UHGV virus genome: UHGV-0120889
Source: a virus
Strand: one strand, 5' to 3'
Length of the DNA: 64,000 nucleotides
Shown: positions 1,406 to 62,369 of the stretch, piece after piece
Layout: each line of letters opens with the position of its first letter
Position numbering within the stretch: position 1 is the first letter of the stretch
Notes under the pieces: model-generated
The model's input: the letters and a program-made list of their open reading frames with translations, nothing else
What the model was told of the DNA's origin: nothing
Database searches by the model: none
Made by a program: the position numbers and the translations under genes

Positions 1406-3742
1406 TTACCAAAGATCTGTTGACATAAAGTTAATATCTTTGTTATTCTCCCACTCAAGTTTTGCATCAAGTATTTTGCTAAACTCACCCTCATCTATTG
1501 AAATCGTGATTTTCCCATCACTAATCTCTAAAGGTAGCATTTCCATAGTTCTTAATTGAGAAGCAAAACCAGGGCCACCTGGCAACGGAAAAGTACCGCC
1601 CGGTAAGGTGTCCAAAGGATTAACAAATCCGTTACCTCCCGATATGATATCTTTGCGAATCATATCGCTGATAGTATCCAGCTGCTGATTTCTTTCACTT
1701 AGTGGGTTGTAACGGTCATTAAATAATTCCCCGGCGCTTAGTATTGTACCGATAATACCCAGCTTACCGAGCAGACCAACTTTGCCACCAGGTGTCTTGA
1801 GGCCACCTCCCCCTTTTCCTGCCGGAGCGCCACCACCAGATCCTTCTGTAGTAGCGGCACCTGCTACTCCAGCTGCACCCCTTAAAGATCTAAGGTATTT
1901 AAAGGTTTTTACAAGCATAGATACCATGACAAAACCTTTTGTTAGGGCGTTGACGACCAGCATGATGGCAGCAGCAAACCCTGCCCATTTAGCATAGCTA
2001 AAGGTGTCATGAAGCTCTTCAGAATATTCCTTCGTCTTAGCTGTTATGAACCCCCATTTAATCCCCCATTCAAGGAAAAACATGCGGATCTTGACTATAG
2101 TGTTGTTCAGTTCACCAACTACCCAGTTAAGGCCTCTCACAAACCCGCTAACAAAATCACCAGAGGCATCCCACACAAATTGCAGAGTCTCACCAGTGCG
2201 GATTAGTGTATAATAGAACTCTGTTAGTTCGTCAGACCAACGGGTGAACAGTTTCTGACGAGTCAGTTCGATAAAGGTTTTCAGTCTGTTTTCTGCCAGC
2301 ACGTTAGACTTCTGCATTCTTTCATAACCAGCTGCAGATGCCTCGTTCATGTACTTAGCCACATACTTCATGATCTTGGCTGTTTTAACCTCACCTTTCT
2401 TCATCATGTCCATGAACTGATCCATGGAAAGTTCAGAAAGACCAAAAGCCTCTTTGGTGGCCTTGATAAAAGGTTCGTATGCACCAGGCAATGCTTCAGC
2501 AAGTTGTTGCTTCAGTTCTTCGGACATTACCTGTCCTTTCCCGAGCATCTGTTGGATTGCCATAATACCGCGCTGGTATTTTACCTCATCGGCACCATAA
2601 GCAGCAGCATACTGGGAGTATGCAGAAAACAGCTCATGCACTTCCTGATTTGTCATCTGGTTTTTGGCGTTTACCGACATCTGGGCGTAACCTTGAAGAC
2701 CAGATTTGAGATCAAAACCAAGACGCATAGCCTCTTGCTGGACAAACGCAACCTCACTGTTGGCTTTGTTTGGATCTCCAGTGACAGCAGTAAGAGCAGC
2801 ACTTGCCCCCTCCATCATGTGACCGGATCTGTTAACCGCAGCAAATCCAGAAAAAGCTGTATACGCAGCTGTTGCATTAATAACAGATCTACGTAAGTCT
2901 CTCATGGCATCGCCTAGTGTAAGCGTTTGGCTGGTGGCGCTTTTAAACCCAGACTGCAGCGCTGACAGGTGGGCGTTAAAGGTTGACTTCTTCATCTCCC
3001 CGCGAGCAAACCTGGACTCTAACTCTGAGTATCCTGGCAAGCTTCCACGGAATCCGGCCCCATACTTGGCAGAAAGTCTTATCGCGGAGTTGTAGAGGTG
3101 GGTTCTCCTTGCCTCACGATCCGACATAAGCCTATTATCCATACCAGCTTTACTGTCTCTTCTTAGCTGTCTATGATAACGATTCATAGCGGCTGTCTGA
3201 GCTTTCACAAGGTTAGGGTCGGAAGCCACACCACCCATATTAGGGTTACCTGGGATATATTTGAAAGATTTGGCATTAGCCAAAACTCTTGCCTTAGGTG
3301 CCTTATAACCACCGTAAGACACTGGTGCAGATTTGGCAGCCTTTTTGGCCTCTTTAGCTTGCTGCTGGTAGAACTTACGCATCCTAGCCATTTCTGGATT
3401 TTTAGCGGTAAGATTACCTACAGCTTGTTTACGTCTCGCATTCTCCCTACGTTCTATTGCAGCCCTTACTGCAGCCTCTTTCTTGGCCTGTGCTACGCTC
3501 TCTCTGTGCAGTTTAGCATTTGCCTGAGATTGCTGTCTGGCAACCCTCTGCATTGTCTGCTGGGTTTTAACAGCTACCGCCTGCCATCTACTCATGGGGT
3601 TGGCTGAGTTAAAATCCTCGCCCAGTTTCCTGAACTCCCTCCCAATACTGCGAATTTTCTCTACAGCTTTTTTGTAGGAGGAGTTCTCTATCTCAAAGCC
3701 AATCTTGTTGACTGTTGTGGCAACTATTTTGTTTGTAGCCAT
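1406..3742 (-). CDS. tail tape measure protein (778 aa)
   Basis: Longest ORF of the tail module; Ala/Gln/Lys-rich helical N-terminal half, Gly-rich block (GSGGGAPAGKGGGGLKTPGG); preceded by chaperone-like ORF pair. Confidence 0.85.
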   Translation of the reverse strand: MATNKIVATTVNKIGFEIENSSYKKAVEKIRSIGREFRKLGEDFNSANPMSRWQAVAVKTQQTMQRVARQQSQANAKLHRESVAQAKKEAAVRAAIERRENARRKQAVGNLTAKNPEMARMRKFYQQQAKEAKKAAKSAPVSYGGYKAPKARVLANAKSFKYIPGNPNMGGVASDPNLVKAQTAAMNRYHRQLRRDSKAGMDNRLMSDREARRTHLYNSAIRLSAKYGAGFRGSLPGYSELESRFARGEMKKSTFNAHLSALQSGFKSATSQTLTLGDAMRDLRRSVINATAAYTAFSGFAAVNRSGHMMEGASAALTAVTGDPNKANSEVAFVQQEAMRLGFDLKSGLQGYAQMSVNAKNQMTNQEVHELFSAYSQYAAAYGADEVKYQRGIMAIQQMLGKGQVMSEELKQQLAEALPGAYEPFIKATKEAFGLSELSMDQFMDMMKKGEVKTAKIMKYVAKYMNEASAAGYERMQKSNVLAENRLKTFIELTRQKLFTRWSDELTEFYYTLIRTGETLQFVWDASGDFVSGFVRGLNWVVGELNNTIVKIRMFFLEWGIKWGFITAKTKEYSEELHDTFSYAKWAGFAAAIMLVVNALTKGFVMVSMLVKTFKYLRSLRGAAGVAGAATTEGSGGGAPAGKGGGGLKTPGGKVGLLGKLGIIGTILSAGELFNDRYNPLSERNQQLDTISDMIRKDIISGGNGFVNPLDTLPGGTFPLPGGPGFASQLRTMEMLPLEISDGKITISIDEGEFSKILDAKLEWENNKDINFMSTDLW

Positions 3743-6625: not shown

Positions 6626-7177
6626 TTACTGACCACTGTCTGTAACCGATTTATCAGAATTGGGTGAAGGGAAGTGTGTGGTTATTTCAGCCTTAATTCC
6701 CTGAAGATCCTCAAAAGCCCCAATGTCTGTCTCAACAAACCTTACGTTAAATGTCAGCATTACCGTGGCTCTATTTTCATACGTCTGCTTATTCAACGGC
6801 ACTCTTTGAGGTGAGATTGTTGAATTGTTAGAGTAGGCAAAGCACGATCCCAGAGGGAAATACTTGTCATAAAACATTGGAAGGTTTATTGCTTGCAATA
6901 CTCTGCTAAGTGCAGCATATGCCCTGCCGCGATAAGCTGTTAACAGATAAGTAACAGTGTAACTGTGGGTGACGTAAGCATTACCTTCCGCATCTTGAAA
7001 CTCATTATCTTCCCAAGTGGTGGGATTGATCGCCAGGGTTTGCAAAAGTACAAACTCACCTTCCGGCTTCGGTATGGTAGAGCTTTCTGCCAGAACTACA
7101 GTTCTTCCTGTGGCAACCTTGACAAGCTTAGCGATGGTTGTTTCAAGATCAGAAAAAACTTTTTCGAAAGCTTCCAT
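6626..7177 (-). CDS. hypothetical virion protein (neck/tail-completion region)
   Basis: ORF track; between capsid genes and sheath gene. Confidence 0.4.
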   Translation of the reverse strand: MEAFEKVFSDLETTIAKLVKVATGRTVVLAESSTIPKPEGEFVLLQTLAINPTTWEDNEFQDAEGNAYVTHSYTVTYLLTAYRGRAYAALSRVLQAINLPMFYDKYFPLGSCFAYSNNSTISPQRVPLNKQTYENRATVMLTFNVRFVETDIGAFEDLQGIKAEITTHFPSPNSDKSVTDSGQ

Positions 7178-7618: not shown

Positions 7619-8089
7619 TTACTGTCCGATTTTAAAGGTTGCAGATTCAAGCAGCACATCGTAATGCCGCATAGCCTCGTTGAAGCCTTTCTCTTGTGCC
7701 CACTGCTCGCTAACAGTAGGATTACTAAACTGCCCAGCCTCAATAACAAACTGGATAGCTTTGGCCCCTGTGTCCCCCATCTGCTTAAGAATAGCCTCTG
7801 CACTCGATCCCCTAGCCATAGCTCTCAACAATTTTTCTGTCAAGGTCTGTAGTTGAGTACTATGAAATGCAAAAGCTGTCTCCATGAAATTGCGAACAGG
7901 CAGCCCGTTCCAACCGAAGTTGTGAATGGCTGCCAATGTTGCCATATTTAAGCCTGACGGGTGAGGTTCGTCATAAAAGCCGTAGGTTATTGTTTTACTT
8001 TCAAGTCTCACAAGCTCTTTGTAGAAGCGATCTAAACGCTTTAGGTTGAACCTTGTTTGACATTTAACCTTTAGCATTATATCCCTCAC
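7619..8089 (-). CDS. hypothetical virion protein (head-tail joining region)
   Basis: ORF track; late operon position. Confidence 0.4.
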   Translation of the reverse strand: MRDIMLKVKCQTRFNLKRLDRFYKELVRLESKTITYGFYDEPHPSGLNMATLAAIHNFGWNGLPVRNFMETAFAFHSTQLQTLTEKLLRAMARGSSAEAILKQMGDTGAKAIQFVIEAGQFSNPTVSEQWAQEKGFNEAMRHYDVLLESATFKIGQ

Positions 8090-17278: not shown

Positions 17279-17355
17279 TGGTCTCCACGGAGTGATTCGA
17301 ACACTCGACCTCCTGATCCCAAATCAGGCGCTCTACCAAGCTGAGCTACGCGGAG
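17279..17355 (-). tRNA. tRNA-Pro (anticodon UGG)
   Basis: Manual cloverleaf: acceptor CTCCGCG/CGTGGAG, D-arm GCTC..GAGC, anticodon loop UUUGGGA, T-loop TTCGAAT, encoded CCA. Confidence 0.85.
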
Positions 17356-17366
17356 TATTTATTATT

Positions 17367-17441
17367 TGGTGGCCCTGGGTGGAATTGAACCACCGTCTGG
17401 CGATTATGAGTCGCTTGCTTGAACCTTCCAGCTACAGGGCC
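17367..17441 (-). tRNA. tRNA-Met (anticodon CAU; could be Ile-lysidine type)
   Basis: Acceptor GGCCCTG/CAGGGCC, anticodon loop CUCAUAA, T-loop TTCAATT, encoded CCA. Confidence 0.8.
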
Positions 17442-17442
17442 A

Positions 17443-17518
17443 TGGTGCTGATGGCAGGACTTGAACCTGCAACCTATTGATTACAAATCAATTGCACTAC
17501 CAATTGTGCTACATCAGC
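17443..17518 (-). tRNA. tRNA-Thr (anticodon UGU)
   Basis: Acceptor GCTGATG/CATCAGC, D-arm GCAC..GTGC, anticodon stem ATTGA/TCAAT loop UUUGUAA, T-loop TTCAAGT, CCA. Confidence 0.85.
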
Positions 17519-17524
17519 AAAAAA

Positions 17525-17623
17525 GGTGCTAGGTGATGGAATCGAACCACCTATGTATTCAACGACTACCTCGTCTATTTTCAGGATTAAAAATCCTCGC
17601 CCTTGCCAAAGGGCTTACCTAGC
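17525..17623 (-). tRNA. atypical tRNA-like gene (possible anticodon UUU; ~30-nt extra arm)
   Basis: Acceptor GCTAGGT/ACCTAGC, D-arm GCCC..GGGC, T-arm GGTGG-TTCGATT-CCATC present, but 99 nt long with oversized variable region and no encoded terminal A. Confidence 0.3.
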
Positions 17624-17721
17624 TCAGTATGTTGACCATGTTGCTAGTCGGCGATGACGACTGTAACATTTGATAATCCGGTTCTGCTTCCGGCTTTCGC
17701 TTAATTACAAGGTCAACAATA

Positions 17722-17812
17722 TGGCTGAGGGTAATGGAATCGAACCATCATCGAGTCATCCTCAACGGGACGGTTTTCAAGACCGCTTGAGCACCATTGC
17801 TCCCTACCCTCA
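17722..17812 (-). tRNA. tRNA-Ser (anticodon UGA), type II
   Basis: Anticodon arm GCGGT-CUUGAAA-ACCGT, long variable arm, T-loop TTCGATT, acceptor TGAGGGT/ACCCTCA, CCA. Confidence 0.75.
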
Positions 17813-17926
17813 TTTATAAACAATACTGATAATGACACTGATTTTCGAGCAGTTAGTGACTAGTATAAACGACGATAAATATCAATGCCATTATCTGTAT
17901 GATTTATGCATTTAAAACTATAAATT

Positions 17927-18013
17927 TGGTGGGGAGTGGTGGAGTCGAACCACCCGAGTCGTAATGACAATAGATTTACAGTCTACACCGCTACCTCTAC
18001 GGGATAACTCCCC
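17927..18013 (-). tRNA. tRNA-Tyr (anticodon GUA), type II
   Basis: Anticodon loop CUGUAAA and variable arm TGTCATTACGACTCG closely resemble bacterial tRNA-Tyr; acceptor GGGGAGT/ACTCCCC, CCA. Confidence 0.85.
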
Positions 18014-18017
18014 AATT

Positions 18018-18092
18018 TGGCACCCCGTACTGGACTCGAACCAGTGTCAACGGCTTAGAAGGCCGCTGCTTTATCCACTAAGCTAACAGGGC
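18018..18092 (-). tRNA. tRNA-Arg (anticodon UCU)
   Basis: D-arm GCTT..AAGC, anticodon arm GCGGC-CUUCUAA-GCCGT, T-arm ACTGG-TTCGAGT-CCAGT, CCA. Confidence 0.8.
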
Positions 18093-19196: not shown

Positions 19197-19406
19197 TCAA
19201 CAGATTCCGGCCTTATCCCTCCTGTCTGCGTATTCTTTAATCGCAACCTCATCTGCATTGGTGACTAAATCTTCAAAGTAACTCTCAAGCTCCTCGTCAA
19301 TGTCAGGAAACCAACTCTTTTTCCTATCAGTGTGAATCGCAGACTTGTTGAATTTATTACAGTTCTTTGCTACCGGATTGTTCATTAATCGCCCCTCAGC
19401 GTTCAT
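19197..19406 (-). CDS. hypothetical protein (69 aa)
   Basis: ORF track; overlaps upstream gene stop. Confidence 0.35.
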   Translation of the reverse strand: MNAEGRLMNNPVAKNCNKFNKSAIHTDRKKSWFPDIDEELESYFEDLVTNADEVAIKEYADRRDKAGIC

Positions 19407-19974
19407 AGTAAATCTTATTTAACATTACCTCATCCTTTGCAGAAAGAATACCGAGATATGCATCACCGAACCTACCTGCAACAACCTCTACATGATACAT
19501 AACTTCGTTAATATCGTCAAGAGTGATAACTGGATGACCGTACCTCTCTGAGTATTGTCTCAGAGTGCGATGTAGGGAATCATCATCGTAGGCAGACTTT
19601 TTAATATCACAAACACGACGAATAGCCTTGATGTCGAAAAACCCTGTGCGATACCAACCAAGAAAAAGGTTTCGTACAGTGTCAACACCTACATCAACAC
19701 CGTCAAGAACCTTATCTACAAGATAGCTGTCATCCTTTGGACCTGCTTCCTTAGTTCGAATGTAGTTGCCATCTTTTCCTGGTGACAGCTCCTTCTCATC
19801 ACCAACCTGAATGCCATCATTTGGCGGTGTTAACCACTTATCCGGATGCTTACGATCACGAGCGTTAGAATGATTACGCTGGAAACCTGGCTTCCACTTG
19901 AAAGTTTTCTCCATCTGTTCTTCATTCTGATAACGTTTTGCAATCTTTTCACGGTCATCTTTGCGTGGACTCAT
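19396..19974 (-). CDS. hypothetical protein (192 aa)
   Basis: ORF track; GAGGAGG RBS upstream of ATG at 19974. Confidence 0.5.
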   Translation of the reverse strand: MSPRKDDREKIAKRYQNEEQMEKTFKWKPGFQRNHSNARDRKHPDKWLTPPNDGIQVGDEKELSPGKDGNYIRTKEAGPKDDSYLVDKVLDGVDVGVDTVRNLFLGWYRTGFFDIKAIRRVCDIKKSAYDDDSLHRTLRQYSERYGHPVITLDDINEVMYHVEVVAGRFGDAYLGILSAKDEVMLNKIYYER

Positions 19975-20480
19975 AGCTGCCTCCTCTTCAAGTTATAGAA
20001 AAACTCACTGTATCGCTTTGTAACGAGCTTTTCTATCAAACTGGTGCGATTGCCTTACCTGGTATAGTTTATATAGCTGTGGAGCGATTTAGGGGCCTTC
20101 TTGTCCGTTTCCACACATAAACTTCATCCAAGCTCGCGCGGGAGACTCTCAACCGACTCCTTACGGCGCTGGCAAGCTTTCGTCGGTGGTCCACATCAGT
20201 GCTCGGCCTTTGGCCTGCGCTATCGCTTCGCTCCCACACATGTTAACAGACCTTCATGTATGCACTTCTGTTATTGTGTGCACCAAGGAGGCCCGGCATC
20301 TCGCCCCTCGTAGGCGAGTGCCAATGAAGGGCCGACACTACCTATAGTAAGTAATAAATTTAAAACATGGTACTTAGGATCTAGTATATTCTACATAAGT
20401 TAAGTATATGTACTTAGTACCATAAGTACTAGATCTTTTATTTTTTTTTTATTATTTAGTTATTTTAGTTATATTCTTTA

Positions 20481-20567
20481 TGTGTCCGTATCACGGACAG
20501 TTAGTGTCCGTATTACGGACAGATGTGTCCGCGTGACGGACAGTAGTGTCCGTATCACGGACAGTTA
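20481..20567. repeat. array of four 17-bp palindromes TGTCCGT-N3-ACGGACA at ~21-22 bp spacing (operator/iteron-like)
   Basis: Read directly: TGTCCGTATCACGGACA, TGTCCGTATTACGGACA, TGTCCGCGTGACGGACA, TGTCCGTATCACGGACA. Confidence 0.8.
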
Positions 20568-20630
20568 CTAACCTCTGTTCCAGAGTGAACATAAAACATA
20601 CGAATCCTTATAGTACAGATATTTAAGTTT

Positions 20631-20990
20631 TTACTGGTCTAACCAGTTGTTGACATTCGAATAACTTCTTCTGGTGGCAAAACTTTGGAAAATGTGCATC
20701 TTTTTACCTCTCCCTTGTGTGGATATTTCAACCACTCCTGCACATTCTAAAGTTTTAACGCACGCTGCTGCTTTTGTTTTCTTTATCCCAATATCTGCTG
20801 CAATTTTCCTTGTGCTGGGCGTGAAGCGTGAATTTCCTCCAAGCTTATACCAGTTGTGCAGGTAGCAGTATACGATCTTGTCATATAAGTCAAGAACAAC
20901 AACCTCACCAGTTGTGTCATTCAAAACTTTTGACATAGACAGTATTTCAAGGGGGACTTTAAGATATAGCAGCTTATCCCCATCTTTCAT
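20631..20990 (-). CDS. putative HTH DNA-binding protein (119 aa)
   Basis: Helix-turn-helix-like segment (RKIAADIGIKKTKAAACVKTLECAGVV); adjacent to palindrome array. Confidence 0.45.
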   Translation of the reverse strand: MKDGDKLLYLKVPLEILSMSKVLNDTTGEVVVLDLYDKIVYCYLHNWYKLGGNSRFTPSTRKIAADIGIKKTKAAACVKTLECAGVVEISTQGRGKKMHIFQSFATRRSYSNVNNWLDQ

Positions 20991-21037: not shown

Positions 21038-21592
21038 TTACTCCACGCTGTCAATAGCAAGACTCATTGCAATACGGTATGCCTCTTCTAATGGTAAGAG
21101 TCTCCCCCACACATCCCAACCGACATCAAACTGCCTGCCAAACAACTGCTGTGTGGTTCCGTGAGCATGACCGAACAGTTGGACCGATCCGTGAGGCTTT
21201 CTGTTCCACTTTGCAAACTGGTAATGGCTCATACAGATCAAATTCTTGTTGTGGCGAAGCTCGTAATAATCTACAACCTCATGACCGAACTCTTTCATAA
21301 TTCTGACAGTCGTCCTTGTGTCATGGTTACCACGAACAAGAATAATATGTCCGTTCAACATATTTAGAACATCTGGGAGCAATTTGTTAATATTCTTATC
21401 ATTAGTGCACGCAATATCTCCTAAGTGAAACACAGTGTCTGCAGGTGACACAACAGAGTTCCACTTGGTGATGATCCCCGCATTCATACTGTCAAGATTG
21501 TGATCATACTGAGATCTGTGTTTTTGACATGAGTCAAACTCCATGACCCGCTGGTGGAGAAAGTGTGTGTCGCTTGTTACAAAGTATTTCAT
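21038..21592 (-). CDS. calcineurin-like metallophosphoesterase (putative polynucleotide 2',3'/3'-phosphatase)
   Basis: Metallophosphatase motifs VTSDTHF, HLGDIA, VRGNHD, GHAHG; start at internal ATG 21592 with GAGGAA RBS. Confidence 0.65.
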   Translation of the reverse strand: MKYFVTSDTHFLHQRVMEFDSCQKHRSQYDHNLDSMNAGIITKWNSVVSPADTVFHLGDIACTNDKNINKLLPDVLNMLNGHIILVRGNHDTRTTVRIMKEFGHEVVDYYELRHNKNLICMSHYQFAKWNRKPHGSVQLFGHAHGTTQQLFGRQFDVGWDVWGRLLPLEEAYRIAMSLAIDSVE

Positions 21593-21599
21593 ACATTCC

Positions 21600-22010
21600 T
21601 CATTTAAGTTTAATGCAGTTTTTAAGCTGGCGTTCCATACGATCCACAACCCTGTCTGGAACATCATGAATGCTTTTACTACCATGGCGGTTTTCAACCA
21701 CGATTACGGTATAACTATACCCATGACTGATCGCCATGTCAATATATTCTTGCACATATTTTTCTTTTGTAAATGTATTACTTACCACGATACGGTCGTA
21801 TCCCATACGCATCATATCTTCTACGTTATCTTTGCACCATTTTGCTGCAAGTGTTACTTTACTTGCATCCCAGTTGTAATTTCCATCATCGTCGTACCAG
21901 AACATGTCGTTCTCAAAATGTGGATACAGACCTTCTAAAGATAGCGCACTTGCCAGTGTTGATTTGCCAGACCCTGGTAGACCACGCACGATATATAGCA
22001 TTTTAGACAT
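21600..22010 (-). CDS. P-loop polynucleotide 5'-kinase-like protein
   Basis: Walker A GLPGSGKST, VVSNTF and ENRHGSKS...R motifs resembling Pnk kinase domains; ATG 22010 with GGAGG RBS. Confidence 0.55.
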   Translation of the reverse strand: MSKMLYIVRGLPGSGKSTLASALSLEGLYPHFENDMFWYDDDGNYNWDASKVTLAAKWCKDNVEDMMRMGYDRIVVSNTFTKEKYVQEYIDMAISHGYSYTVIVVENRHGSKSIHDVPDRVVDRMERQLKNCIKLK

Positions 22011-22110
22011 AGTAATCCTCCGTTTTAATTTCAACGATAGTATACCTAACTGTTTTGTTAATTTCAAGTGTTGACACTAGGTTATTTGTGTGGCAGGATA
22101 GACTGACAAA

Positions 22111-23046
22111 ATGACAAATGAGGAACGTATGATGAAGTATTTTAATGCAGACGACCTAGTTGACAAAGGTCTTGTAACCAGCAGATATCACCCAGACCTT
22201 GGGTTAAAGATCTATAAATATGCCAGAAAAGTATTCTACAACAACTTATGGCATTTGTCTCCTCGATTACTGGAGTGCCGAGGCATTGTTGTCGGTAATG
22301 AAGGAAATGTTGTGGCATGGCCCTTTACAAAAGTGTTTAACTTGGGAGAAAACTCCACCAACCTGCCTGACAATAAGCTTGTGACGGCGGTAGAGAAAAA
22401 GAACGGATTCCTTGGTGTGGTGTCATCTCATAAAGGTGAACTATTGTTCTCAACAACCGGGTCTCTTGATTCTCCATATTGTAACCTTGCAAAGGAAACC
22501 ATCCAGGAGCAATGTGGTAATTTAGATCTTATCAAGAAGGTTATGGGCAATGAAAATATGACATTCATGTTTGAAATTTGTCACCCATCAGATCCGCATA
22601 TTGTTCAGGAAGATCATGGCGCATATTTGATAGGTTGCAGATATAATGATTCTGGAATAATGCTACCAGAAGCAGCTTTAGATTGGATTGCCAAATACCT
22701 TGGTGCAAAACGTCCTCACACTGTGCGTGAAATTCCGTTCAGTTATGCAAAAGAATTAGCTGCAGAAACAAGAGGTGAAGGGTATATGATTCGTAAGCCT
22801 TACTACCCTTATGATCTGCAGCTGAAGATTAAGTCTCCATACTATCTGGCACAGAAGGCCGTAATGAGGGGTAAAGCTTGGAAGATTTGGGATGATGATA
22901 TCTTTAAACGTGTTGACGAAGAGTTTTACGGCATGGTAAACTTCATTCGTAACAACTACACAGAGGATGTATGGAACTGCCTCCTGGAGCAGGAACGCCG
23001 TGAGATACTCGATTACTATTTCCACAACGAGAACTATATGCAATGA
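22111..23046 (+). CDS. RNA ligase, Rnl1-like nucleotidyltransferase
   Basis: Motif I KKNGF (lysine ~97), motif IV EGYMIRK, motif V LKIKSPYY; divergent from kinase/phosphatase genes. Confidence 0.6.
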   Translation: MTNEERMMKYFNADDLVDKGLVTSRYHPDLGLKIYKYARKVFYNNLWHLSPRLLECRGIVVGNEGNVVAWPFTKVFNLGENSTNLPDNKLVTAVEKKNGFLGVVSSHKGELLFSTTGSLDSPYCNLAKETIQEQCGNLDLIKKVMGNENMTFMFEICHPSDPHIVQEDHGAYLIGCRYNDSGIMLPEAALDWIAKYLGAKRPHTVREIPFSYAKELAAETRGEGYMIRKPYYPYDLQLKIKSPYYLAQKAVMRGKAWKIWDDDIFKRVDEEFYGMVNFIRNNYTEDVWNCLLEQERREILDYYFHNENYMQ

Positions 23047-58938: not shown

Positions 58939-59147
58939 TAAACACACATGCATCTGAAGAGACATCCAAAGGAGTGACTATATGTCCCTTGACTGAGCCA
59001 GTGAAAGAGGAAAACTTCGATTCTGAAGATTCTCCATCTTCGCTCCAGGTAGATCCTGAGGTTGATGACCTAACGTGGGAGGACATCGTAGATATCTGGT
59101 TCTCTATTATGCCTGAGCACGAAGAGTTCAGGGGCGGCAGACTATGA
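58935..59147 (+). CDS. hypothetical acidic protein (70 aa)
   Basis: ORF track. Confidence 0.4.
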   Translation: MINTHASEETSKGVTICPLTEPVKEENFDSEDSPSSLQVDPEVDDLTWEDIVDIWFSIMPEHEEFRGGRL

Positions 59148-59186
59148 AGCACCGAGCCCACACAGGTTCCTCATGCTAAAGCATGG

Positions 59187-60376
59187 CCTGAAGAGGCAAA
59201 CGTGCATAATTCCAGCGTATTGGAACGCATAAAACCCTGTTCACACTCTCATTTTCCAGAGGAGATTTCATGAAGATAGAAATATTTGGTGGAGCTGACA
59301 ACACTCGTGGCCTGATTTACCTTGAATTCGAGGAATCATACCTGCCAGAGGTGTTAAATATAGACTCTGTTGCTGAGGCTTTGGGAGTAAACCCTAAAGA
59401 ACTCCACTCTTGTGCTGAGATCGATGGTTGGGAAGAGACCATGAACATTGATTTCAGTGAAGTAGAGGATGAACCGCTGGACTGACACACAATTAGCTGC
59501 CCGGCTAAAGTGCTGGAAGCACCTATAACACATCTTTCAACTAAATTTCCTACCACCACAATCACTTACCTCCCACACATGACTGTTTGCTTGTTTAGTG
59601 AGCAGTCATGCCTTGACATTCTTGCCTATCTTGATAAAATTAAGTTCTTCTCTTTTCTTTTACCGAGTAATTCGGGTTTTCTGTTCTCTTCGGTTTGAAG
59701 GGGTATGGAGATACACCTGAGTGAACAGGGTGAACAACCGAACCTTTGGCTATGGCATTAGCATGGCGAAGCGGACGGGTGACGAAAGAGGGGCCGGAGG
59801 ACACCAGTCACTGCCATATGATATATGGGTGATAACCTGAAGAGTCTGAATAAGTGTTTAAGTACCAGTCAGAGGAAAAGGTGAATGGTAGCCGAAGGGG
59901 GAGGGGGGTTTCTTGTATCTTTAATTTGTATATTATGTATACACTTGTAAACCAACACCATCTGAATTTGTTTACCACAGAAAGCGGATAGAGACAAATA
60001 TTACCTATTAAACTTGAATTATTTATAGAAAATACCACAACACCACTTAAGTATTTGATTTTACACATAAATCCTACAGATATTCACCCTCCATATTTAA
60101 CATACTTGTAACATATTCCATACTCTACCTGTCTGATCAATTTCCCCAACTACACCCACCATATTTTCCCTGTCTGTACCACCCCTGACCCGCCGGGAGT
60201 CCCGTCATATCTGGCTTTCCAGCAAATATCACACCCACAAATATCATTGCCTGAAGAGGGTTTCATCCCATAATACATGCCTTACCTGAAGAGCGCTTCA
60301 TACACCACGTAAATTTTTTAATTGACCCCCTCCCCGCCGCCGGAGAGGTTGTCTTTTCCCACACAGACCTGAAGAG
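59187..60376. repeat. five dispersed copies of 9-mer CCTGAAGAG in an ORF-poor region
   Basis: Exact copies at 59187, 59836, 60250, 60285, 60368 (all same orientation). Confidence 0.8.
59270..59485 (+). CDS. small acidic protein (MKIEIFGG N-terminus)
   Basis: GGAG RBS; N-terminus like family members. Confidence 0.4.
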   Translation: MKIEIFGGADNTRGLIYLEFEESYLPEVLNIDSVAEALGVNPKELHSCAEIDGWEETMNIDFSEVEDEPLD

Positions 60377-60903
60377 TCAGTCAGAAATATCTGAATGGAC
60401 CCAATTCTGCCCTGTCATGAGCGGTAGCGACTGGAGTGCTGCCAGGCGGACGAAATGGGAATACTTCTCATTCTTATAATAATTCTCAAATATCGAGGCA
60501 GTGAGGAAAATTAATAGGTGAGGCCGTTCACACAGTGGCACAACATTTGCAACCTATCTTGTGGGGGTGAATGAGAATACCTATCATTGTGAGAATAGTT
60601 ATCATTACGGGCAATTTAACATAATACCCATTATGCGCACCACTGGCGATCCATACAGGGATTGATAACATGAGTTACAGTTTACGCATATAACAATCAT
60701 ATTTCTTACTATTTGTGTGGGATATAGTTAGCAGCCGATAGATTAGATATTGACCTGTGGACTTCCAACCATCTAGACGTCTAAACGCCCACACAACAAG
60801 GATTATACATACATTACTGAATGTAAACAGGGCCGCAAAAATGCTACCATACCAGTTTGTAAATTTTTCATGCAGCACTTGACAAAGAGGAGGAAAACTT
60901 GTC

Positions 60904-61028
60904 TGACATAATGTGACCTAACTGACACAACATGACACTTTTACACACCTATTAGTTTACACACTGGATTGTTTACATTCCTGATTGTTCACATGCTAAC
61001 CATTTACATGATTGACTGTTTACACACC
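60904..61028. repeat. iteron-like arrays: TGACA x4 then TTTACA(C/T) x6 at ~16-bp spacing
   Basis: TGACA at 60904-60937; (T)GTTTACA-type units starting 60940, 60955, 60972, 60988, 61003, 61019. Confidence 0.7.
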
Positions 61029-61036
61029 GATAATCA

Positions 61037-61287
61037 GCCATGCCATTCGTTTGCATGACAATAATTATACATGACAATAATCGCACTGATTATAATTAGC
61101 ATGACATAATATAAAAGCAGGGCAACTATTAGCAGATCTATAGTTGCCTTGCTTGTCATGTCATGATTAACTAAATACAAGGCAACTATGATCTGATTAA
61201 TAGTTTGCAGACAAACTATCACGGGGGTGATGGTTACTGCTTTTATATTATGTCGCGACTCCGTCGCGCCATGCCATTCGTTTGCAT
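61037..61287. repeat. 251-bp element bounded by perfect 20-bp direct repeats with nested inverted repeats
   Basis: GCCATGCCATTCGTTTGCAT at 61037..61056 and 61268..61287; inner 15-bp inverted repeat 61106..61120 / 61237..61251; palindromes GGCAACTAT-N10-ATAGTTGCC (61121..61148) and 61181..61208. Confidence 0.8.
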
Positions 61288-61949
61288 AGTTGCCTTATTG
61301 TTACAGGTAAAATAATTGTATTGTTAATTATTTCTTATCTTTCTATTAGTCATCTAATGATTCCAGTTAGTATAGTAACGTACAGTAAACATTAGACGAC
61401 TAAAGATTTCTCTGCTTATGATAACCTAACGTGACAATTTCAGACTGTTTACGAAAAATGTTGACACCTGAGCTGATTTATGTTATGCAGTTTACACGAA
61501 TAATTATTTTATGCAGGTATTGACTATTCCGTTATTCTATGGTTGGAATAAATACTTAGCAGACTATAGAATGGTGAGCGTACGTAAATTCTGAGATCTG
61601 TCGGCTATAGTTATACTCGATTTTTCACGTAGAACACGCTTTTTGGTTTGTGTAAGTGTATGACTTATAAAGATTTTTAGTTGTTGACAAGATATTGGAG
61701 ATGTGCATCAGATTAAATTTTGTGCAATAGCTACATTACGTGCACTTTTGGAAGAAAAAACGTGTAAAAATGGCCCTGCTACCACACAATGAAAGATTAT
61801 GCAATAGTTATTTTATATGTATATTTGTACAGTGTGTGGGATTAATGGCTAGTCAATTATTCCACTTGCCAGGTAGGGCCGTTTATGGTAGGAGAAGAGC
61901 AGACAAAAAGAAAGGGGCCTTTAAGCCCCTTGATAATTCAATTAAGAAA

Positions 61950-62369
61950 TTATAATGATTCGTATATTTCAAAAATCCGATTTGCCAGGTCGTTACGGTA
62001 GCGGAATTTTTCATCACGCTTGATCATTAAATCCTTATAGCCGTACTCTTTAAGCACTTCATTAACTTTATGGCGGCATACCTGCATATTATCTTGAGCG
62101 TCACCAATAAATCTGTTGCTATGGTGCATGGCTTTAATTTCTTCTTCCAGGACCAGGGCAACTATGCGGACCGGATCAAGCTGATAGGCGGTAACATCCA
62201 TGCGGCATTGTAAACGGCTTTTTACGTCTGCCACCGGATATACTGCAACCTCTTCCCCGTCAACATTGACAATAATTAGTTTACCATCGATTTCGAATCC
62301 TTTCGCCGCCGGACCGTGACAAAAAGCGTTATCAAAGCTATATGCCGGATTATTAGATTTAATGTTCAT
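61950..62369 (-). CDS. hypothetical protein (139 aa)
   Basis: ORF track. Confidence 0.45.
   Translation of the reverse strand: MNIKSNNPAYSFDNAFCHGPAAKGFEIDGKLIIVNVDGEEVAVYPVADVKSRLQCRMDVTAYQLDPVRIVALVLEEEIKAMHHSNRFIGDAQDNMQVCRHKVNEVLKEYGYKDLMIKRDEKFRYRNDLANRIFEIYESL

Follow-up and report, generated by a model that had tools for sequence, protein, structure and literature searches.

Long multi-hairpin untranslated RNAs stand beside replication origins in several well-known systems, among them ColE1 RNA II, the T7 primary origin and T4 oriF/oriG. Hairpins adjacent to an origin are also a feature of the G4-type and phiX174-type ssi sites, where loops are conserved and stems covary on the strand exposed at the fork, and structured RNAs lie near the start of long phage transcription units in HK022 (put) and lambda (nut). 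In the rrn operons, the boxC sequence UCUGUGUGGG forms the 5′ strand of the 16S leader-trailer helix (PMC10250234), and for PhiTE, a phage related to rV5, the abstract of PMC3475682 describes pseudo-ToxI as a non-coding RNA locus that acts by mimicry. Here, we describe a GC-rich, hairpin-dense and non-coding element of 303 nt in UHGV virus genome UHGV-0120889, the genome of an rV5-like Escherichia coli phage of the genus Vequintavirus; the stretch of 64,000 nt that we analysed as a whole is referred to as the window. The element occupies 20037..20339 on the minus strand, between the ends AGUGUCGGCCC and CACCAGUUUG. With slightly less than even confidence, we propose that it is a structured non-coding RNA domain read from the minus strand beside a probable replication origin, and that it most likely serves as a folded leader.

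The locus resembles these systems in part. As in the rrn leader, with its boxC and leader-trailer helix, and as for the boxC of lambda nut, a GU-rich 5′ strand takes part in a long-range helix that closes an untranslated domain, and as in the leader-trailer helix the pairing is kept by interchange of Watson-Crick and wobble pairs. At the element, however, no canonical boxA lies 18-19 nt upstream; the partner of the boxC-like strand, CUCCCGCGCG, is only ~95 nt away and does not belong to a trailer on the far side of an rRNA; 10 pairs make up the helix instead of 25-40; and beyond this the sequence does not resemble rrn operons. With ColE1 RNA II and the T7 and T4 origin transcripts, the element would share the character of a structured untranslated RNA beside an origin, provided that it is transcribed as we suppose. 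Unlike ColE1, it has neither an antisense partner of the RNA I kind nor any sequence or Rfam similarity, and the origin next to it is of the iteron/initiator type. Like HK022 put and lambda nut, the element would be a structured RNA placed early in a long phage transcription unit, but it lacks a boxA, an N-like protein and any similarity to put. Finally, it shares with PhiTE pseudo-ToxI, as far as the abstract of that report goes, the presence of a non-coding RNA locus in an rV5 relative. ToxI-type RNAs consist of 36-nt units in tandem, which ToxN processes, whereas the element has neither a tandem repeat nor a toxin partner, and no tandem repeats of ~34-36 nt beside a toxin gene, as in type III toxin-antitoxin systems, were found at 20037-20339.

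Limits and conservation of the element

The element lies within a 655-bp gap between the minus-strand genes 20990..20631 and 19974..19396. A preliminary description of this DNA had placed a GC-rich, hairpin-dense segment at 20041-20340. We confirmed this segment, and homology to ~119 Vequintavirus genomes and to the plasmid L009 set its limits at 20037-20339, so nearly identical to the first coordinates that these can be taken as correct. The GC content is 0.55 at 20100-20299 and 0.49 at 20000-20199, compared with 0.32-0.35 directly upstream (20300-20599) and ~0.37-0.46 in the adjacent genes.

An 801-bp query around the element matched 119 Vequintavirus records at 90-100% identity. Among nine Vequintavirus genomes, we calculated a nucleotide diversity (pi) of 0.021 for the 5′ hairpin (20290-20333) and of 0.027 for the core, i.e. 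about half of the variation found in the flanking genes (0.046-0.057). The variable hairpin (20244-20273) and the 3′ domain (20037-20134) both reach ~0.09 (0.086 and 0.094, respectively). Within the region, variation peaks in the 13 bases directly upstream of the element (20340-20352; pi 0.20), which gives the element a sharp 5′ edge. Beyond this edge, four iterons have a pi of 0.017, a degree of conservation exceeded in the region only by the AT tract and inverted repeat next to them (20353-20480; 0.0125). The element is under selection at the level of its nucleotide sequence. On its 3′ side, a conserved untranslated spacer with a ribosome-binding site (19975..20036, minus strand; pi 0.037) leads to a gene of 192 amino acids (aa). 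No terminator-like site, i.e. a GC-rich hairpin followed by a U tract, was found on either strand at 19800-20800; transcripts that carry the element are therefore expected to enter the 192-aa gene.

Tandem repeats are absent from 20037-20339 and present only in the AT tract and the iterons. Two likenesses noticed by eye were dropped: one to a T7 promoter (CTTACTATAGGTAG), which falls in the most variable stretch, and one to the E. coli type I-E CRISPR repeat (GAGUCUCCCGCGCGAGC...), where the hairpin of that repeat cannot form. Exact-pattern scans of viral, genome and metagenome collections returned only rV5-like contigs, plasmid-like contigs (two, of 13.9 and 15.5 kb) and chance matches of 21-24 nt. 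We also discarded a host-derived fragment as the source of the element: blastn against 5,426 E. coli genomes matched four phage-like plasmids only and no chromosome.

Secondary structure of the element

The preliminary description had favoured a structured RNA over protein-coding DNA, and the comparative alignment supports this view. Read on the minus strand, the element begins with a 5′ hairpin domain (20290..20333) of three stacked helices, for which we observed both pairing and compensatory changes. The outermost helix H1 (GGCCC/GGGCC, 20329-20333 with 20290-20294) never varies. In the plasmid L009, H2 (GGCA/UGCC, 20319-20322 with 20295-20298) reads GUCA/UGAC and H3 (CUCGCC/GGCGAG, 20313-20318 with 20300-20305) reads CUCUCC/GGAGAG, i.e. 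a G-C pair has become a U-A pair by a double change in each of them. H3 is the stem CTCGCC-CCTCGTA-GGCGAG quoted as an example in the preliminary description, and this stem is real. In all 6 distinct sequences, 15 of 15 pairs of the hairpin are kept, against 36-48% in controls with slid partners.

Downstream of this domain, a hairpin with the arms UAACAGA ... UCUGUUA is predicted in the minimum-energy fold (20244..20273, minus strand). Its arms AACAGA/UCUGUU turn into GACAGC/GCUGUU in a divergent phage from IMG/VR (read by eye), and an 18-nt deletion (20260-20277) removes the 5′ arm in Murica and typing phage 5; the variable hairpin is apparently dispensable.

The core is enclosed by a closing helix, in which the GU-rich, boxC-like strand UGUGUGGGAG (20231..20240) pairs with CUCCCGCGCG (20135..20144). 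In 17 distinct sequences, 94.8% of the alignment cells of this helix are paired, and its three U-G positions are U-G in 17 of 17 sequences at two sites and in 15 of 17 at the third. Since most of its pairs are invariant, true double changes are few, and the support for this helix is kept pairing and not covariation. The homologues in plasmids, treated below, fall into two types; in type 2 plasmids, at least 8 pairs of the closing helix are kept through one-sided G-U changes together with a matched UG/CG expansion (by eye).

Inside the closing helix stands the core stem-loop (20152..20187, minus strand), in which stem C (ACCGAC/GUCGGU, 20182-20187 with 20152-20157) is 100% paired and capped by the 24-nt loop GAAAGCUUGCCAGCGCCGUAAGGA (20158-20181). 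In type 1 plasmids stem C reads GCUGCC/GGCAGC, so that 3 of 6 pairs differ from the phages on both sides, and two phage sequences contain a G-U pair. Phages and type 1 plasmids, by contrast, have the same loop, written as GAAAGCUUGCCAGCGCCG(U/G)AAGGA, apart from a single G/U position, and the junction sequences of the core are kept between phage and plasmid copies as well. At this place, type 2 plasmids have a stem of 8 bp that is unrelated (GUCCGGAU/AUCCGGAC) and a loop of 18 nt that differs as well. The comparative alignment is thus positive for compensatory changes in the core stem (3/6 pairs) and in the 5′ hairpin (2 pairs).

The 3′ domain (20037..20134, minus strand) is predicted to form a long imperfect hairpin. 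It holds the conserved CCCCUAAAU (20087-20095), which in the form AAG(G/C)CCCCUAAAU(C/G)GC is shared with the plasmids, the remainder being variable. A pairing of the 24-nt loop with this domain is possible. The candidate pseudoknot would join 20158-20181 to 20104-20118 with 6 of 8 pairs in the window and 8 of 8 in phage Aya (CUUGCCAG/CUGGCAAG), and in the plasmids the loop could form 9 contiguous pairs with GGCCUUCUGGCUGC.

From the phage core we built a covariance model, R1, which aligns 18 copies and fits them to its own structure. In this alignment, 93.2% of the cells are paired, compared with 34-47% for slid partners, and the covariation score of 0.157 (0.075 in shuffles) was reached by none of 500 shuffles. 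R1 recovers all phage copies, and each genome has a single one; it scores the window at 145.8 bits, with no second copy in it, type 1 plasmids at 57-71 bits and type 2 plasmids weakly at 16-23 bits. In four more distant phage contigs, whose phosphoesterase is 63-65% identical, R1 found no match, and L036, the one of the four that we examined, has no long non-coding gap and no iterons. The copies that R1 finds have the core frame UGUGUGGG ... AUGUGGA - stem - loop - stem ... GAGUCUCCCGCGCG in common, and its stems covary.

Folding energies gave z-scores of -1.9 for the minus strand, -1.6 for the plus strand and -2.0 for the 207 nt at the 5′ end. When the comparative helices were enforced, the energy was -104.9 kcal/mol, which is only 0.6 kcal/mol from the free optimum of -105.5. 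RNAalifold on the phage clade alone was uninformative, with a covariation term of +0.41 and stem C missed. The complementary ends that the preliminary description had reported were not supported by the comparison. CCUUC and GAAGG could form no more than 5 contiguous pairs, changes in the 3′ partner are not compensated on the other side, and for GGCCC the local pairing with GGGCC in H1 is the better explanation; the proposed partners GGGGCCTTC/GAAGGGCC are not conserved. Two further helices were rejected: UUGGUGC/GCACCAG of the minimum-energy fold is broken in most relatives, and a GGAC/GUCU 'covariation' seen by eye conflicts with the closing helix.

Strand and molecule

The U-G pairs of the closing helix and the G-U pairs of stem C favour the minus strand, and RNA over DNA, as the same positions would turn into A-C mismatches on the plus strand. 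Indeed, RNA parameters recover the comparative helices, including the closing helix in minimum-energy folding, whereas DNA parameters miss both the closing helix and stem C. The plasmid modules carry loops of the C(UACG)G and C(UUCG)G types. The flanking genes are encoded on the favoured strand in the phage as well as in the plasmids. Judged from these sequence features, the element is very probably read as an RNA on the minus strand, and we infer that it is transcribed.

A boxC-like strand in phages and plasmids

The window sequence CAUGUGUGGG matches 8 of 10 positions of rrn boxC, whose sequence we confirmed in the rrnB leader and in PMC10250234. Over the whole window, the 68 sites that match the decamer with at most 2 mismatches do not amount to an enrichment over the 51 expected, and TGTGTGG occurs 28 times against 9.1 expected. 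In the plasmids, each module begins with (C/U)UGUGUGGG, and several contain the exact boxC decamer UCUGUGUGGG; the identity to the E. coli rrnB leader extends over 13 nt in L013 and L034. The sequence TGTGTGGG is present in L013 in 9 copies (0.37 expected), which lie on each side of the iterons and are always oriented with local transcription. One of them stands in the leader of the capsid operon, ~175 nt past a perfect TTGACA-17-TATAAT (sigma-70) promoter. A boxA-like sequence noticed by eye, AGCUCGUUACAAA at ~20012-20024, was dropped; it has 4 mismatches and lies downstream.

An origin-like module beside the element

The element lies ~30-140 nt downstream of an origin-like module. The module includes a 119-aa protein of the HTH_36 replication-initiator family (20631..20990, minus strand), which matches phrog_12838, phrog_8102 and phrog_428, all of them 'replication initiation protein', and carries the same name in RefSeq; HTH_36 is its Pfam assignment. 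Its gene stands directly upstream of four iterons of 21-22 bp (20482..20567) at spacings of 22, 21 and 21 bp. Each iteron contains the 15-bp palindrome GTCCGTNNNACGGAC, for which the window has no other site with fewer than 2 mismatches. Between iterons and element (20353..20480) follow an A/T-rich tract (20436-20480, GC ~0.32) and an inverted repeat (20367-20377 with 20413-20423). An initiator-family gene, repeats at helical spacing and an adjacent AT-rich tract, the attributes of an iteron origin, are thus found together, and a lambda-type replication origin at 20353-20567 and 20631-20990 is probable. An earlier skew analysis failed to locate the origin of rV5 (Kropinski 2013).

On the other side of the element, the 192-aa gene (19396..19974, minus strand; phrog_12226) has no known function and is found in Vequintavirus only. 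Directly upstream of the initiator gene, we noticed an RNA-repair gene set at 21038-23046, with a phosphoesterase, a polynucleotide-kinase-like ATPase and an RNA ligase (other strand).

Plasmid-like homologues

Is the element found outside rV5-like phages? In a blastn comparison with complete E. coli genomes and PLSDB, we found patches of ~85% identity in circular 'plasmids' of 13.2-13.7 kb, and homologues beyond Vequintavirus were found only in plasmid-like elements of this family. A record of 39.6 kb from the same family holds three copies and may be a trimer, and two contigs from metagenomes (13.9 and 15.5 kb) also represent this kind of element. The family comprises the loci L009, L010, L013-L016, L020, L024 and L032-L034 (records CP020521, CP043822, CP148565, CP035869, CP134895, CP178698, CP074841, AP045055 and JBUCKS010000006, and the two metagenome contigs). 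Every 13-kb plasmid also contains one copy of CCTCTTCAGGCAAT.

The 13-kb plasmids carry 16 genes and ~2.3 kb of non-coding DNA. Their capsid protein is distantly of the HK97 type and 22% identical to capsids of 140-150-kb myoviruses. Three further proteins have counterparts in the window: Neck1 is 45% identical to the product of 7649-8071 (gp056 in rV5), a phrog_5197 protein is 50% identical to that of 613-1236 (probably gp048 in rV5), and the tape-measure protein is 25% identical to that of 1883-3400 (gp049 in rV5). The plasmid initiator is lambda-O-like with an HTH_36 domain and matches phrog_8102 and phrog_428, as the phage initiator does; the 119-aa phage protein and the plasmid Rep are 30% identical over 81 aa. 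Among the plasmid genes, we recognised neither a terminase nor a portal gene. The 13-kb plasmids are, in our reading, putative satellites of rV5-like phages or else defective relatives of them.

Phage and plasmids share the order of four iterons, AT tract and element; in the plasmids, a GC hairpin stands between the AT tract and the array, and the related initiator is nearby. The plasmid core is one unit in an array of hairpin modules, in which 6 of 11 pairs have changed on both sides and 98.2% are paired. L009 carries the rV5-type 5′ hairpin, which implies genetic exchange between phage and plasmid. Besides a 24-nt match at 60471-60494, the element core is the sole likeness to the phage at the DNA level in the plasmid non-coding DNA. 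This 24-nt match, TTCTT(A/C)TAA(T/C)AATTCTCAAATATC, connects the window with L013 5781-5804 (also with L015, L016 and L034) and is marginal (E ~0.01). Two sites on the minus strand of L013 look terminator-like towards the iterons: a hairpin followed by TTTCATTTGT at 6877-6905, on the strand opposite to the array and at its first hairpin, and a G-rich hairpin beside the AT tract at 6792-6815.

Coding potential and known RNA families

The statement of the preliminary description that the segment holds no credible open reading frame (ORF) stands: ORFs of 31-70 aa exist. Two of them lie inside the element on the minus strand, 20338..20243 (31 aa) and 20239..20069 (56 aa), and are annotated as 'hypothetical protein' in records of the BASEL collection, but neither has a coding signature. 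Variable sites are spread over the three codon positions as 9/7/7 and 15/20/16 in these ORFs, whereas the flanking genes show the expected third-position excess (20/11/53 and 13/12/33). In the most divergent copy, that of the IMG/VR phage, one ORF has a frameshift and a lost start and the other an internal stop, and a check for a remnant gene revealed none. The BASEL-collection Vequintavirus records (MZ501048, MZ501061 and others) annotate three small 'hypothetical protein' coding sequences across the intergenic region; two are the ORFs inside the RNA element, and the third (20491-20592 in the window) consists of the iterons.

Covariance-model scans against Rfam, whose families include riboswitches, ribozymes, 6S, tmRNA, RNase P, C4/CI and GOLLD/ROOL, gave no match at the gathering score in 19900-20700, and the element is therefore not a known family. 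At E up to 10, the best score was that of rli43 (23 bits, with a gathering score of 100) and nothing was meaningful; the plasmid non-coding region had no Rfam match either. ARAGORN found no tRNA or tmRNA in the region of the element. A ribozyme-like element, raised as an option in the preliminary description, received no support, as there is no Rfam ribozyme match and the hammerhead-like string CUGAUG, noticed by eye, was dropped as not conserved. We found no paper on the region, on satellites of rV5 or on the 13-kb plasmids, and none that prints the core sequences; the label 'non-coding' in Kropinski 2013 was given to a different region of 2.6 kb.

Functional interpretation and alternatives

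The element appears to represent an undescribed family of structured RNAs, whose other members found here are the plasmid hairpin arrays and which has no match in Rfam or in the literature. Such a family would reuse a known principle, the boxC-type long-range helix, at a known kind of site, namely an iteron origin or an operon leader. Based on the absence of a terminator between the element and the next gene, the element would most likely be the folded 5′ part of a leftward transcript, which would also carry small ORFs and the tRNA cluster. We speculate that the boxC-like long-range helix, like the rrn leader-trailer helix, would fix the fold during RNA synthesis, while the stems would merely display the invariant loop and junction sequences. 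Loop and junctions could then be the docking site for a host or phage factor needed by phage and satellite alike, and the effect might fall on the transcript itself, as a gain in stability and as uninterrupted elongation through a long, largely untranslated and structured region. This co-transcriptional mechanism with a shared factor, in which transcription, factor and effect are all presumed, is possible rather than probable.

Several observations weigh against the proposal of a folded leader. Upstream of the element there is no convincing promoter, only a TAnnnT hexamer that lacks a -35 and is missing in a divergent phage, and it is from the sequence elements described above that we infer the origin. 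In 19975-20630, no match to boxA (UGCUCUUUAACAA or CGCUCUUA) with at most 3 mismatches was found, and rrn boxC itself was reported as not required for antitermination (PMC2724277); the parallel is therefore one of a leader-trailer-type helix and not of a Nus-dependent antitermination signal. The folding energy is only ~2 standard deviations better than that of shuffles, so that the case for structure rests on the comparative evidence. This evidence has its own limits: H1 and the closing helix are almost invariant and thus gain no support from covariation, the R1 alignment is not independent of the structure to which it was fitted, and with low diversity and effectively three lineages (phages, type 1 and type 2 plasmids) there are few independent compensatory events. 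The 24-nt loop is missing from type 2 plasmids and is hence not essential to the whole family. Finally, the plasmid array is located upstream of the promoters of the next operon and not inside a mapped transcript.

The position of the element raises the question of whether it belongs to replication rather than to the transcript downstream. As an origin-linked RNA, it would unwind the AT-rich region by transcription, provide a primer or pre-primer, or control copy number, and the plasmids would have copied it in order to replicate upon helper infection. The arrangement of the locus is in line with this idea, as phage and plasmids agree in its orientation and have it directly behind four iterons, an AT tract and an inverted repeat, both systems have related HTH_36 initiators, and the core is, bar the 24-nt match, the only non-coding DNA that they share. 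In the plasmids, the opposite strand has a weak promoter-like site (9/12) near the rep promoters, which together with the terminator-like hairpins beside the AT tract gives the geometry of an origin-directed primer. However, ColE1 RNA II runs to the start site of replication, whereas the favoured strand of the element is read away from the iterons, and the origin-directed strand cannot form the closing helix because U-G pairs become A-C. A conserved opposite-strand promoter, as a ColE1-type primer would need, is lacking in the phages: an extended -10 on the plus strand (TGGTATAGT, 20060-20068) is not conserved and is lost in Aya, L022 and the IMG/VR phage. Moreover, the capsid operon leader of the plasmids, ~2.5 kb away from the iterons, holds boxC-type modules as well. 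Taken together, we regard a role in replication at the RNA level as unlikely.

Alternatively, the RNA could act in trans in a conflict between helper and satellite or between phage and host, either as a decoy or sponge for a protein (a Nus-type factor, an RNase or a defence factor) or as a kissing partner of a satellite RNA, used by the phage against the satellite or in reverse. Phage and type 1 plasmids differ in their stems but have the same loop, in which the self-complementary AAGCUU and GCGC are found, as would suit such contacts. Modular plasmid arrays with repeated boxC-like motifs, the recombination of phage and plasmid versions in L009 and, within the abstract of PMC3475682, the decoy precedent of pseudo-ToxI in the rV5-related PhiTE point the same way. 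No terminator marks off a discrete small RNA, the analysis pointed to neither a partner nor a target, the element lacks tandem repetition, and the relationship of helper and satellite is itself putative. A trans-acting RNA is thus quite improbable.

A signal in single-stranded DNA, i.e. a priming site of the ssi/primosome type or a helicase-loading site through which the plasmids would capture the replisome of the helper, is very improbable in our view. Like the G4-type and phiX174-type ssi sites, the element is adjacent to the origin in both systems, and its structure-forming strand, running 5′ to 3′ away from the iterons, would be the lagging-strand template for a departing fork. Folded as DNA, this strand gives a z-score of -2.15; it contains GCGAAGC, a very stable DNA mini-hairpin, and invariant loops on covarying stems would fit recognition by a helper protein. 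Its helices, however, depend on U-G pairs: DNA parameters recover neither stem C nor the closing helix, and as DNA the closing helix would hold three G-T mismatches in 10 pairs. The plasmid modules have UNCG-type loops, which stabilise RNA and not DNA. Modules of the same family also occur in an operon leader far from the iterons, and only one orientation is found.

That the element instead encodes two small proteins (31 and 56 aa) or is the remnant of a decayed gene is extremely improbable. In favour of it, the ORFs are open in most Vequintavirus copies and both observed indels (18 nt and 3 nt) are multiples of three, but both ORFs have GTG starts and no ribosome-binding site, their even codon-position spread is unlike that of the neighbouring genes, almost all substitutions change an amino acid, the IMG/VR copy is disrupted by frameshift, lost start and internal stop, and the plasmid homologues do not preserve them.

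Other features of the window

Of the seven Rfam hits in the window, six are tRNAs and one is a group I intron. The group I intron (RF00028, 15481-15759, minus strand) scores 84.3 bits as a full-length match to its model. ARAGORN places all its seven tRNA genes in a minus-strand cluster at 17279-18092; among them, a tRNA-like gene of 99 nt (17525-17623) has a 4-base anticodon according to ARAGORN and is called tRNA-OTHER or tRNA-Lys in the records.

A region without ORFs, ~59100-61950 on the minus strand, corresponds to rV5 104013-106618 of Kropinski 2013. Within 1.2 kb of it, CTCTTCAGG occurs in five exact copies on the same strand, while ~0.5 would be expected in the whole window. One copy abuts an exact boxC (CUCUUCAGGUCUGUGUGGG, 60358-60376), and another is part of a nut-like order of CUCUUCAGG, hairpin and CCUGUGUGGG at ~59140-59195 on the minus strand. 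Short repeats were noticed by eye at 60900-61300, minus strand: (G)TGTAAAC five times, CAAACGAATGGCATGGC twice and GGCAACTAT/AGTTGCC several times.

Implications

The phages of the rV5 group are widely used model and therapeutic coliphages, whose non-coding 'wastelands' are unexplained. One such region can now be described as a defined RNA with testable helices and a probable origin alongside. The unexpected part is the link to a satellite-like plasmid family, which shares with rV5 both the RNA core and homologues of tail genes. If these plasmids prove to be satellites, none would have been described earlier for this phage group, and the shared RNA would be the obvious candidate for a signal that links satellite to helper. 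We speculate that the RNA is a means of recognition common to helper and satellite, in which the invariant loop of an origin-proximal RNA of the lytic rV5-like myoviruses would be read by a phage or host factor and the plasmids, which have capsid, neck, tail-tip and tape-measure genes of their own, would have copied this RNA into modular boxC-type hairpin arrays. We consider this unlikely; if true, satellites would plug into the replication or transcription of their helper by piracy at the RNA level, built on mimicry of the rrn leader. The recurrence of the boxC decamer in long-range helices of mobile elements bears, in addition, on the question of what boxC is for.

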